From Escherichia coli (GTDB taxonomy: Bacteria; Pseudomonadota; Gammaproteobacteria; Enterobacterales; Enterobacteriaceae), in NCBI RefSeq assembly GCF_030013595.1, contig NZ_CP122768.1: 64,000 nt of DNA. One strand, 5' to 3'. The stretch's first letter is position 1. Every line of letters starts with the position of its first letter. This document shows positions 30,301 to 36,300 of this stretch, in pieces. Made by a program: the position numbers.

Positions 30301-33300
30301 AGCAGGTACCGAAGCCCGTGACTCCACGGTTGGCAAGGGTGGTGCAATACAAAACCTGGGTCAGGACTTCGCCACAAAGGTTAATTCTGGTGGACAATAT
30401 ACCCTCGGTCGGTCAAAAGATGAGTTTCAGGCTTTGGCCCGGGCAGAAGATCTACAGATCGCTGGCGGGACGGCAATCGTCTACGCAGGTACGCTGGCGG
30501 ATGCATCGGTCAGTGGCGCGACAGGAAGCCTGTCGTTAATGACGCCACGGGATAATGTTACGCCAGTTAAACTTGAAGGGGTGGTCCGGATTACCGATAG
30601 CGCGACATTAACTATCGGAAATGGCGTCGATACGACGCTTGCCGACCTGACGGCTGCCAGTCGGGGCAGTGTCTGGCTTAACAGCAATAATTCCTGTGCA
30701 GGCACCAGCAACTGCGAATATAGAGTAAACAGTTTACTCCTCAACGACGGTGATGTTTATTTATCAGCACAAACAGCAGCGCCTGCCACAACTAACGGTA
30801 TCTACAATACGCTGACCACCAGTGAACTTTCCGGCAGCGGTAATTTCTACCTGCATACCAACGTTGCAGGCTCCCGGGGCGATCAACTGGTCGTCAACAA
30901 CAACGCCACTGGCAATTTTAAAATCTTTGTTCAGGATACCGGCGTCAGCCCTCAGTCTGACGACGCGATGACGCTGGTGAAAACAGGGGGAGGGGATGCT
31001 TCGTTTACGCTGGGTAATACCAGCGGTTTCGTTGATCTTGGGACCTATGAGTATGTCCTGAAAAGCGACGGCAACAGCAACTGGAACCTGACCAATGATG
31101 TCAAACCCAACCCGGACCCCAACCCAAATCCGAAACCGGATCCAAAACCAGACCCAAAACCGGATCCGAAACCAGACCCGACTCCCGATCCAACGCCGAC
31201 ACCCGTCCCGGAGAAACGCATCACGCCTTCTACGGCAGCCGTACTCAATATGGCAGCAACATTACCGTTGGTCTTTGATGCTGAGCTAAACAGTATTCGC
31301 GAGCGGTTGAACATAATGAAAGCGAGTCCACACAACAATAATGTCTGGGGGACGACGTATAACACCCGTAATAATGTCACCACCGATGCGGGTGCCGGGT
31401 TTGAGCAGACGCTGACCGGAATGACGGTGGGGATCGATAGCCGTAATGATATTCCTGAGGGGATTGCGACGCTGGGCGCTTTTATGGGTTATTCCCATTC
31501 ACATATTGGTTTTGATCGTGGAGGACATGGCAGTGTGGGCAGTTATTCTCTGGGGGGCTATGCCAGCTGGGAACATGAAAGTGGTTTCTATCTGGACGGT
31601 ATCGTGAAGCTGAACCGCTTTGAAAGTAACGTAGCCGGTAAAATGAGCAGCGGTGGAGCCGCCAACGGCAGTTATCGCAGCAACGGGCTGGGCGGTCACA
31701 TTGAAACCGGGATGCGATTTACCGATGGTAACTGGAACCTGACGCCGTATGCATCGTTAACGGGGTTCACCGCTGATAACCCCGAATATCATTTATCCAA
31801 TGGCATGGAATCGAAATCAGTCGATACCCGCAGTATATATCGTGAACTGGGCGCAACGCTGAGTTACAACATGCGTCTGGGGAACGGTATGGAAATTGAG
31901 CCGTGGCTGAAGGCGGCTGTGCGCAAAGAATTTGTCGATGATAACCGGGTGAAGGTGAATAATGACGGTAATTTCGTCAATGATTTGTCGGGCAGACGTG
32001 GAATATACCAGGCAGGTATTAAAGCCTCATTCAGCAGTACGTTAAGCGGACATCTCGGGGTGGGGTATAGCCATGGTGCCGGTGTGGAATCCCCGTGGAA
32101 CGCGGTGGCTGGTGCGAACTGGTCGTTCTGACCATCAACGAAAAAGCCCACATCTGTGGGCTTTCATATCACCAAGAGCCGCGGCTCCTTTGCGTATCCT
32201 TTTATGTCTCCTCACCGTCTGGTCGGTGTCTTGCTGAGACTTCTAACTTCCTGTTTTTGTTGGTGTTGTCCTTGCACCGTCCAATCATGATTGGTGGAGC
32301 TGGCGGGAGTTGAACCCGTGATCGTGATTAATCCAATTTATTGAATATGAACGATTTATTTTTTCAAACAATGAATTATGTGCATTTTACGTACATATTG
32401 TTGTCCCGGTAACGTCCTGATTCTGTACAACATTTTGAAATATTTTGCCGTTACGGGGTTGCAGAAATCGCCGTTTTTCCATCGTATTCTGCAAGGTAAG
32501 AGCCGTAATGTCTGAACAGCATTTCCGGTCCTTTATGCCCCATCTGACCAGCAAGCCAGAACAGGTTAACGCCCTGGCTAATGTGCCGAGTGGCGAACGT
32601 GTGGCGTGTCTGGTACGGATTGCGATAGCGTACACCAGCTTTTTTAAGGGTTGGTACCCAGGCTTTTTTCGGATCGCATCTGCGTTTGCCCAAGGGGCGC
32701 GAGTTTTCGGATCGCTGAATATGAAGTCGCTCTTTAGCGCCGTGTAGGGCTTTTGTGCCTGAAGAGCTGCCAGCGCTTCGCTGTTCAGTTGCACTTTGCG
32801 GGTGCCGGCTTTTGTTTTGGTGCTTTTGATTACCCCGACTACGCTTGCAGTCTGAACATGCGCGGTGTTGCCGATAAAGTCTATATCCGTCCAGCGCAAC
32901 GCGCACAATTCTGAGCTACGCAGTCCAGTATTAAAGGCAAAGCGAAACAGATTTCGCCATTCCGGGTAATGACAGGCGTCATAGATTGCTGCCGTCTCCG
33001 CTGGTGTAAAGGGATCGACCTCGTAATCACCACTGCTTGGTGTGTTGTCCAATACGTGATACCGGCTGGCGCTGACTAGCGTGACAGGATTTATTGTTAA
33101 CAAACCATCGGTCACCGCTTCATCTATGGCGCTGCGCAGAAACGAAAGATTATTGCGGATCGTTTTCAGTTTTGTTTTTCTGCTGGCGATCCAGTTTTTT
33201 AGTACAGCAGGTGTCAGTTCTGATACATGAAATTTATGCAATGCTGACAGCGCCGACAAGCATTTTTCATAACCTCTAATTGTCGATGGTGACAGGTTAC

Positions 33301-36300
33301 GGTTCTGGCAGATAATCAGGTATTCATCCAGATAAGATTTTATATTTTTGTTTTTTTTCACTCCCCCGAACAACTCCAGCTTTTGGGAGTTGGGGAAGTA
33401 TTTTGCATATTCGAAGGTACCATCGATAATCTGATTTTTTATTTCTCCCAGCAGACGCTCGGCGTACTTCACACCGCGCGCGTTTACTTCCATTCTGGAG
33501 AGGGGCTCCCGACACAGAACCCCTTTATATGTAAAAGTGATAACCAGAGTGCTACCAGTTTTATGCTGCCGAATAGTTACTCCTCTAGGGAGAGATAATG
33601 ATCCTTGTTCTTTCTTGCCCATTTTGTAATCTCCATTAAGTCGACCCAACGTTCTTTAACTCCGTCGACTTTTAATACATGTACCCCTTCTTTCCATATT
33701 CCTCTTTGTATCCGTTTGTTAACGGCATCAACCGTTTCTCCTGCGTTGCGGCAGTAGGTTGATATAGGTACGCAATCCAGCCCCACAGTTCACCTCACAC
33801 AACATTCAGCCCACGGCAGTGGCACCACACTTCAAACATTCGCCTCACAACTTCACGACAGTAGAAGCCGTCAACGTCTCGCGTCAGGTCATAGCGATTG
33901 CCGTAACGCTGGCGTACCCATAGCTCAAATGCTTTATTCATTCTCTATTTCCTTTTCATGGCTCGTAATTTTTTCAGATGAGCTTCCAGCTCTGTTTCTG
34001 CCAGAATTTGTCGGTATTCCTGGTGATCTATCCGTTCAAACGATTCATTAAAATCGCTTATTTTTACAGATTGTGTTCGCCCATCCATTCTTCTGTACAA
34101 CACAGTGTTGTTTATGCAGCGAATAATTTTTATCGGGTAACCGGCACTGTCGGTATACAGTTGCCCTTGATTAATCAAAGCGAACATTTTTTCTCCTGCT
34201 CTCTGAATAGTGAGAACTTCAGAGCCGTATGTTTGTAGCGGGTTCAATACTGATAATTTCTGCTGAGATAAGCATCCCGGCAAGCCAGAGTTCTCCGGAC
34301 AGGTCTTCATCCTGACATATCAGTTCGCCAATATTAATGGTGGCCATGATATCTGTTTCCCCTGTGCGCTCATCCTCGACTTCTTCATAAGGCAGCGTTG
34401 CGTACAGGCTTTCAATAGCGCAACTGATAACATCCAGTCCGGTCAGATTGCCGCCGACAGTAACTTCGAATGTTTCGCGGTATTCCCATAGTCCGAAAGT
34501 TAATCGAACGGTTTGTTTTGCCATGCGTCCGCATGACGTCAGATTCGGATCATAGTTCATTATTTGCGGTTGGGTATTATGGGTGTTCATCTGCTTTTCC
34601 CTTAGCCCGGCAGGTCGCCGGGCATATAAGTTATTTAACCTGGATAAATGGTGTACTGGCGCCGCTGGTCATGTATTGCGGCAGTGTGCCGTTCCATTTA
34701 TTGATGGCTTCCAGCTCCATAACACCGGGGTTCTGGCGCAGAGCTTCACCGCGTAAACGAATAGCATCGGCTTCAGCCTGGGCTTTTGTGCGAATCGCAT
34801 CAGCCTGTCCGGCAGCTTCCGCGCGCAACATGTTGGCTTCCGCTTCGCGCTGTTTAACTTCCTGCTCGCGCTGCAGTGTTTTCTGGTTCGCCGTGACTTT
34901 GGCATTAATGCTGTCGATAACGGTTGGCGGGTACTCCGGCTTACCCACATATGAGAGGCTCATTACCTGAATACCGATGGGCGTCATTTCTGCCTGAATG
35001 TCTTTAAGAGCTGCATCCAGCAGTTCAGACTTGCCGCCGTCGATAAATTTGTCGGTGGTCATTTTGCTGGCCAGTCGATTGAGTGCGTCGGCGATCTTTT
35101 GACGCAGGTCGGTGTCGGTAATGTCATCCACGCCTTTGCGGTAGGTCTGAAACACCGTGGTAACTTTGGATGGGTCAACTTTGTAGGCCACGCCGATGTG
35201 ATAGCCGATGGTTGTACCGTCACTCATCTGGAAACTGAACGGTTCATCGTAGGTCTTCATTTGTTTGAAGGTCGGGAAGATGTAAACTTCAGTATTCCAG
35301 CCGGTCCAGTAGCGGCCAACGCCAACCACTTCACCGACGCCTTTGTCGTCGCCCAGTTTATTTACCTTGATGCCAACATTACCTGGTTCAACGCGATCGC
35401 AACCGACAAGGCCAATGGTCGGAAGAACAATGGCTAAAGCAAAAATAACTTTTTTCATCTTTTACCCTTAGTGAAAGAAAGACCCTTGTAAATGGCATAA
35501 ATGCAGGGCGGGGTCAGAAACGCCAGTGCAAAGCCGGAAATGACTGCTACCGTATCCTTCATGGATATAAGGAACGGGACGAGTAGTCCGTAAATGCATG
35601 CGATAATTGCCAGTAAAATTACTATTCTGAAATACAATCTCATTGGTTTGTTGCATCCCGATATTTTTAACTGACTGACAGCGCAATAAAGAGAATAATG
35701 ATTTCTGTTAGTGTCAGTACTGTGGCAAGGATTAAAAGCAGTTTTACTCTGCTTAATTCACGGTTGCTTTTCATATAAACGGTTAGTAAAAAACGGAAGA
35801 ATTATATTCTTCTTAATATTTAATGTGTCACTGGCGCTTCTGGCATACCATGAGTATTCAGATCGTGAATCATTTCATCCAGAAGGAGTTCAAGCTCTTC
35901 GCGCCCCATAGCAGAGACAATGAAACCATTATTAGGATCTGCGATGAGCATTTTTTGATAGAGAAACAGAACTCGCCCCATGCCTTCAGCTTCACCATAT
36001 TTTTCAATAAATCCCCATTCGACATGGTTTTGCAGGGCAATGCGAAGTGGTCCTGGGTATATACTCATGCAACCATGCTTCCCCTTATAAATAACTGCGC
36101 GATCTGTAGTTCCGTTATCGTTAGGGATATCAATGGTGCCGTTCTTGTCTTCCACTTCACTGATAAATTTCGCTACATATAGCCAGCGCCACTGGGCAAC
36201 CTTCATATCGACTGAAAATTTGCCCAGCAGTCCGGCATCATCAGCTTCTGCAATACATTGCATGATTCTTAACCCGTGCCAGTATGGATTATCGTATTCA

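Follow-up and report, generated by a model that had tools for sequence, protein, structure and literature searches.

What kind of element has left a fragment of a transfer-messenger RNA (tmRNA) gene beside a phage integrase gene in Escherichia coli, and can that element still move? The question is raised by a 64,000-nt stretch of contig NZ_CP122768.1 (assembly GCF_030013595.1), here called the window and numbered from its first letter, in which the 27-mer TGGTGGAGCTGGCGGGAGTTGAACCCG lies on the + strand at 32292-32318, between the native chromosome around ypjA and a lambdoid prophage whose integrase gene, int, adjoins it. A preliminary description had read the 27-mer as a copy of the 3' end of the tmRNA gene, ssrA, left by prophage integration. 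Our results make it very probable that it is the core of attR, an ordinary attachment-site scar of a lambda-like prophage in ssrA; they also reveal that int, as written, carries a single-base frameshift.

An exact copy of the ssrA 3' end at the prophage boundary

In strain K-12, ssrA terminates in ...GGACGCGGGTTCAACTCCCGCCAGCTCCACCA, so that, as proposed, the 27-mer when reverse-complemented reproduces the final 27 nt of the gene without a mismatch; the ssrA 3' ends of strains ETEC4085, rl0044 and WP8-S17-ESBL-08 match it just as exactly. It is present in a single copy in the window, where no further match was found with up to three mismatches tolerated, and 100 shuffles produced no match by chance. 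Similarity to ssrA does stop abruptly, since beyond 32318 identity to the body of the gene falls to 33/170 nt, the random level, and ARAGORN called no tmRNA gene in the window. A chance match is ruled out, and so is membership of a longer unrelated repeat, one of the outcomes that the preliminary description had named as undoing it, because the 27-mer is single-copy and its flanks diverge at once. In the tmRNA structure, these 27 nt correspond to 4 nt of the 5-nt 5' strand of the T-stem, followed by the T-loop and the 3' strands of the T-stem and the acceptor stem, and end in ACCA.

Comparison with a strain whose site is empty placed the boundary to the nucleotide. In WP8-S17-ESBL-08 nothing is inserted and the order is ypjA, 160 nt, intact ssrA and smpB, so that left flank, core and gene body are continuous, as in an unoccupied target of integration into a tRNA or tmRNA gene (tDNA). 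Its flank is identical to that of the window over 160/160 nt and the 3' part of ypjA, which ends at 32131 in the window, is 99.3% identical without gaps; identity then runs exactly to 32318, as expected for duplication of an att core, fixing the prophage boundary at 32318/32319. Within a set of 5426 complete E. coli genomes, which also served for the comparisons below, 2644 covered a 140-nt probe spanning the unoccupied junction, and in a spread sample of matches to the window identity again ends exactly at 32318, under the annotated ssrA.

Occupied sites supplied the other end of the element. The best full-length match to positions 31000-35000 among the complete genomes was 98.6%, and two genomes, ETEC4085 and rl0044, contain the same ypjA-27-mer-int junction (98.5-98.6% over this interval). 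Aligning both of their prophage junctions gave for ETEC4085 the order ypjA, 27-mer, int, prophage, a tail-fibre assembly gene, a 27-mer ending ssrA, and smpB, with the two copies of the repeat 41,036 bp apart; rl0044 has the same layout plus an IS3 insertion, and a spacing of 42,503 bp. In both strains an intact ssrA stands at the opposite end of the prophage, and its 3' terminus supplies the second copy. On neither side do the bases next to the two copies agree (catgat, core, tgatcg against caaaag, core, cgtccg) and the direct repeat is therefore exactly 27 bp. ARAGORN reports the ssrA of the lysogen as intact, with the tag ANDENYALAA, and the core is oriented like ssrA in the syntenic genomes, as befits a displaced gene fragment. 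The core joined to the adjacent phage arm (P arm) was present in 27 of the 5426 genomes, with one copy in each.

The same position is marked in K-12, whose flank is the same up to ...atcatgat and continues into the decayed core TGGTGG-GCTGGCGG-AGTcTGAA, annotated as psaA; this is the right end of CP4-57, so that the flank was correctly described as the far end of that element. The psaA scar, at 23460-23490 (-) of the K-12 locus, differs by two 1-nt deletions and one substitution, and one of the deletions, located 3 nt ahead of the discriminator, is of the kind that Islander reported as a "damaged tDNA fragment" (PMC4383910). Because K-12 keeps a CP4-57 scar at exactly this place, the 27-mer could be thought an old att scar, of CP4-57 for example, with the lambdoid prophage merely adjacent and the site unused by it. 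We regard this as highly improbable: the K-12 scar is decayed whereas the 27-mer of the window is perfect; core, P arm and int travel together in 27 genomes and seven viral contigs with differing left flanks; the attP of the free phage LMessi joins the same core to a homologous P arm; and in the relatives the second repeat bounds the prophage exactly, which already contradicts an old scar.

An integrase family with int at the displaced-fragment end

The genes next to the core are arranged as xis (33577-33786), int (33622-32451) and core (32318-32292), all on the - strand; the integrase gene lies 69-132 nt right of the core. As the preliminary description stated, int is thus found at the end with the partial ssrA copy, with core, P arm and int adjacent. 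The interval given there ended at 33649, where an integrase reading frame does begin, but 33649 is the TTG start of a mechanically called open reading frame (ORF) and the real start is 33622.

The integrase, Int, combines an Arm-DNA-bind_2 domain (PF12167, E = 6e-19) with a catalytic Phage_integrase domain. In tblastn searches of phage genomes it was ~79-81% identical to the integrases of LMessi, phi467, the PhiR12 phages and Cronobacter phiES15, and ~62% identical over the N-terminal 339 aa to that of Citrobacter phiNP, against which the repaired protein (see below) gave 68% over 386 aa in full-length BLASTP. Domain composition and high identity place it in this family, in which LMessi, phiES15, phiNP and phi467 all have the same layout, with the core in ssrA sense 3' of int; the position of xis also equals that of the annotated xis of phiES15 and phiNP. 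LMessi has the identical 27-nt core 133 nt past the int stop, and its arms are homologous to the P arm of the window and to the P' arm of ETEC4085. The annotated attP of phiES15 is GGGTTCAACTCCCGCCAGCTCCACCA (26 nt), 3' of int, and the core of phiNP is TGGTGGAGCTGGCGGGAGTTGAACC (25 nt), also 3' of int, co-oriented with it and at the end of the phiNP record. For phiNP, the 25-bp attP/attB in ssrA has been proven experimentally in K-12, the ssrA 3' end being duplicated and the gene regenerated (PMC6456863).

Several differences separate these relatives from the prophage of the window. Although the Citrobacter rodentium phage phiNP (OR565852) shares the ssrA 3'-end target, the xis-int order and a core 3' of int, it is described as a myovirus, with a 25-bp block and ~2.9 kb, including an AAA ATPase gene, between int and core, whereas in the lambdoid prophage of the window, whose head is of HK97 type, the block measures 27 bp and int stop and core are only 132 nt apart. 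LMessi (PP925823) and phiES15 (NC_018454), with Int ~79% identical, are free phages with an intact int and other structural modules; in LMessi, moreover, the match to ssrA continues for another 8 nt, one of them mismatched. The phage phi467 (Int ~81% identical) and the Stx2f prophages found at ssrA in E. coli and E. albertii are, like the element of the window, lambdoid.

CP4-57 uses the same ssrA 3' end and the same ssrA-ypjA interval, but its intA lies directly 3' of the intact ssrA, the opposite layout, and it is not a lambdoid phage. Int matches IntA at 30% identity over 80 aa only, so that IntA belongs to an unrelated subfamily, in agreement with the earlier statement that a different phage family occupies the site. 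In the P4/CP4-57 type, int is downstream of the core and therefore comes to lie next to the intact ssrA; in the family considered here, int sits upstream of the core and co-oriented with it, and for this reason is found at the partial-copy end, distal to ssrA. Its place at the displaced-fragment end is a trait of the family.

These arrangements suggest how the prophage would have been inserted. A phage of ~41 kb, with an attP ordered xis, int, P arm, 27-bp core in ssrA sense and P' arm, would recombine site-specifically with the ssrA 3' end by means of its tyrosine recombinase, the crossover with attB falling somewhere within the 27-bp block of identity, which reaches from the T-stem as far as CCA. 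The exchange would restore an intact ssrA, with P' after it, at the far end (attL), where we would expect the P' arm (...GTCTGGTCAGTGTCC...CAAAAG), the core, ssrA (...CGTCCGAAATTCC...) and smpB in this order, and the original last 27 nt of ssrA would be displaced, together with the native flank and ypjA, to the int-proximal end, which is the view that the window offers.

Some points weigh against this interpretation. As the tail genes are cut off by the window edge at 64000, attL and the intact ssrA of the window's own genome are deduced from the relatives; by synteny, attL should lie ~9-10 kb past 64000. The exact attP predicted for this phage variant, probed as a P'-core-P 39-mer, had no match in IMG/VR, and all 7 IMG/VR contigs with core and P arm are integrated forms.

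An apparent single-base deletion in int

The preliminary description was right that an integrase lies beside the core, but it overlooked a frameshift. The zero frame of int runs on to 32387, producing a misleading ORF of 411/420 aa, and this long "integrase" ORF (32387..33649) is an artefact of the frameshift: its translated C-terminus lacks the HxxR...Y motif, while the motifs RHTFAT...GH...RHYGSY are found in another frame, which ends at 32451. The Pfam catalytic match covers model positions 4-100 of 172 as written and 4-165 of 172 once a single A is added, and the addition yields a 390-aa protein 100% identical to the rl0044 integrase WP_064226590.1. Since a one-base repair reproduces an annotated intact integrase, we conclude that the window holds a family member with a damaged or mis-called int. 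The product of the gene as written has lost the catalytic HxxR, H/W and Tyr, and with them the full R..K..HxxR..H/W..Y set of an intact tyrosine recombinase.

The missing base belongs to a homopolymer with six A residues in the gene (A6). Seven (A7) were found in 11 of 13 complete genomes carrying the allele, and A6 only in ETEC4085 and ETEC1734, whose int orthologues are labelled "frameshifted" by the annotation pipeline PGAP; ETEC1732, a near-clonal sister of ETEC1734, has A7, as do rl0044, all 7 IMG/VR contigs and the phages LMessi and phiES15. A6 is therefore confined to the window and 2 of 20 related sequences and, given the prevalence of A7 in genomes, IMG/VR contigs and free phages, is derived and rare. 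Two explanations offer themselves, recent inactivation by mutation and an error of assembly. Should the base call be correct, the prophage's own Int would be expected to support no excision or integration, or only very inefficient reactions.

It is quite possible that A6 is an assembly or base-calling error and that the integrase is intact and the prophage fully competent. Long-read sequencing is well known for dropping one base from a 7-nt homopolymer, the near-clonal pair ETEC1732 and ETEC1734 differs at precisely this base, and the window contains a second homopolymer shortened by one, G7 to G6 in ypjA at ~27994. On the other hand, no fewer than 14 core genes in the first 24 kb have their full length, and the remaining indels relative to ETEC4085 are intergenic or outside homopolymers, indicating that the assembly is not generally error-prone; runs of seven A are also genuine mutational (slippage) hotspots, and int is dispensable, and free of selection, in a lysogen. 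The distribution of the allele also speaks for an error: the int-xis module is 100% identical to that of ETEC1734 (99.8-100% against the ETEC strains), so that an identical A6 module resides in a host backbone ~4% diverged from that of ETEC4085, which is awkward if A6 kills Int. Its presence in a diverged host calls for independent slippage, a sequencing artefact, a helper Int or leaky expression.

Leaky expression could in principle come from the site itself. In frame, A6 is read as CGA AAA AAG, that is A_AAA_AAG, the canonical -1 slippery heptamer of E. coli, as in dnaX and IS911, and a -1 slip here would give the exact wild-type 390-aa integrase. The A6 allele might then encode a strongly attenuated yet mobilisable integrase, through -1 ribosomal or transcriptional slippage, and this would account for a 100%-identical A6 module in hosts ~4% diverged; we think it improbable. 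Programmed -1 frameshifting as a conserved feature of int we reject, as A7 in frame is the common state, the R-K-K-A codons are in frame in phiNP, phi467 and PhiR12, and the 74 nt downstream of the site fold no better than shuffled sequences (z = 0.65).

Arm sequences and the native flank

The two phage arms, P and P', share a 19-nt element, GTGCATTTYRMGTRYATAT, with a single copy in each; the P' copy is seen in the relatives, outside the window. Its positions and orientation are equal in the phage type of the window and in LMessi, and in both phages it is the best shared 20-mer of the two arms (17/20 matches), a score reached by 1/100 and 0/100 shuffles, respectively. The element is a candidate arm-type site for the Arm-DNA-bind_2 domain of Int.

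On the chromosomal side of the core, the native DNA 3' of ssrA (B' arm) holds a hairpin terminator shared with the convergent ypjA. This flank aligns weakly, but in register, with the P' arms, with a shared block CTCACyGTCTGGTCrGTGTC and the terminator hairpin at the same distance. The local alignment of B' and P' reached z = 6.7-7.6 (0/500 shuffles), compared with z ~2 for control arms of CP4-57 and of the P4-like element. Such likeness suggests that the downstream flank of ssrA may be the relic P' arm of an ancient integration, or that an ancestor of the phage picked up host flank when it excised aberrantly.

Tandem arrays at ssrA

The tmRNA gene is a hotspot for almost all prophage genera as well as islands (PMC3603311), and the most enriched tDNA target in Islander (PMC4383910); ssrA is reported to be in common use in E. 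coli and to be the site most often taken by Stx2f prophages (PMC10673567). Several elements may accumulate there. In ETEC1734 (locus 3848-9036), a P4-like satellite with an integrase, psu and a STY4826-family regulator adjoins the core on the left and the prophage int adjoins it on the right, and in such arrays two different integrase genes point towards one copy of the core. In the phi467 record (LN997803, 3001-7092) the integrase is annotated as two coding sequences, a hypothetical protein and "XerC", and a core-like site ending in CCACTT is followed by a CP4-57-like intA; the record therefore appears to include neighbouring island DNA of a tandem array.

We accordingly considered that the far end of the prophage might abut another partial core, with a later element before ssrA, in which case the 27-mer would still be attR. 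Tandem arrays at ssrA are common: besides ETEC1734 and the phi467 record, 5 of the 7 IMG/VR contigs with attR have arms of CP4-57/P4 type at the left, the other 2 having the native flank. An array in the window is nonetheless unlikely, because in every array observed the extra element is on the ypjA side, which is bare native flank in the window, and because in the two strains with the junction of the window, ETEC4085 and rl0044, the far end of the prophage directly meets ssrA. A single prophage between attR and an intact ssrA is thus our preferred reading.

Chromosomal context and content of the prophage

The coordinates of the features are collected in Table 1. The window is oriented opposite to the K-12 map. 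Its left 24 kb contain proXWV, nrdFEIH, stpA, gabPTD, lhgO and glaH, followed by a low-GC stretch with an ileY-type tRNA(CAT) and then ypjA. The backbone (1-32318) is ~95-96.5% identical to ETEC4085 and K-12 (against the 99.3% of ypjA in WP8-S17-ESBL-08), whereas int-xis is 99.8-100% identical to that of the ETEC strains; the host lineage therefore differs from the hosts of the closest prophage relatives.

Table 1. Features of the window (a dot marks features without strand)
Feature	Position	Strand	Basis or remark
ypjA, autotransporter adhesin, chromosomal flank	27558..32131 (start approximate)	+	ORFs, ETEC4085 alignment, K-12 annotation
B' arm, native DNA 3' of ssrA	32132..32291	.	160/160 identical to WP8-S17-ESBL-08
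att core in attR, displaced ssrA 3' end	32292..32318	-	Unique exact match; direct repeat in relatives
P arm, core to int stop	32319..32450 (132 nt)	.	170/170 identical to ETEC4085; homologous to P arm of LMessi attP
Candidate arm-type Int-binding element GTGCATTTTACGTACATAT	32380..32398	+	Best shared P/P' 20-mer
int, tyrosine integrase (Arm-DNA-bind_2 + Phage_integrase)	32451..33622	-	1172 nt, ATG to TAA, 1-nt deletion
Homopolymer with 1-nt loss, T6 on + strand (A6 in gene)	32664..32669	-	A7 in intact alleles
xis, excisionase, overlaps int start	33577..33786	-	phrog_2917 (PHROG), E = 1.5e-40
Remaining prophage to window edge	33787..64000	.	PHROG, ORFs, tRNA, synteny
CI-like repressor	37703..38395	-	PHROG
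Q antiterminator	45669..46052		PHROG
ompC-like porin (moron block)	46242..47339	-	phrog_410, E = 6e-216
DNA methyltransferase (moron block)	48136..49182		
tRNA-Gly(TCC) (moron block)	49443..49517		

The stretch from glaH to ypjA (21000-28000) has a GC content of 32-43%. It contains the tRNA(CAT) at 24336-24411, annotated as tRNA-Ile in ETEC4085, a ypjCB-like ORF at 25168..26622, a recombinase fragment in the relatives (pinH in K-12), and an ORF for a 750-aa protein of the alpha-amylase family (21524..23776), which is intact in the window and has an internal stop in ETEC4085. It may be the remnant of an old island beside the ssrA hotspot. The ypjA gene itself is split into ORFs 27429..28076 and 28361..32131, with G6 (~27987-28004) against G7 in ETEC4085; the split may reflect genuine pseudogene formation, phase variation or a fault of the assembly.

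The adjoining element had been described as a lambdoid, HK97-like prophage, and its content bears this out. The early genes lie on the - strand, right of xis, with replication genes between the CI-like repressor and Q. After a block of cargo come the lysis genes and, following the gene order of HK97, those for TerS/TerL, portal, prohead protease and major capsid protein, and then lambda-like tail genes, of which the tape-measure gene runs past the window end. The names assigned by PGAP in the syntenic relatives include HK97 family prohead protease, HK97-gp10, gpJ, Lom and tape measure, and positions 40000-64000 are ~95.6% identical to the rl0044 and ETEC4085 prophages over 90-96% of their length. 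The cargo, a porin, a methyltransferase and a tRNA-Gly (46242-49517) between Q and the lysis genes, is kept in both ETEC4085 and rl0044. No stx was found among the prophage ORFs examined, although no search aimed at stx was made in the 31.7 kb.

Significance

Both the ssrA hotspot and the use of ssrA by this integrase family were already known, and the arrangement is ordinary. What the analysis adds is only the single-base frameshift of int, the nucleotide-exact boundary, the ypjA frameshift and the P'-like chromosomal flank. The locus has little significance beyond a correct annotation of boundary, attachment site and integrase family. A real base loss, however, would probably leave the prophage trapped at its site, with consequences for predictions of its inducibility and of the transfer of its cargo. 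More generally, the locus is a textbook case of one target in the tmRNA gene shared by two integrase families whose int/att layouts are opposite, and of the tandem arrays to which this leads.

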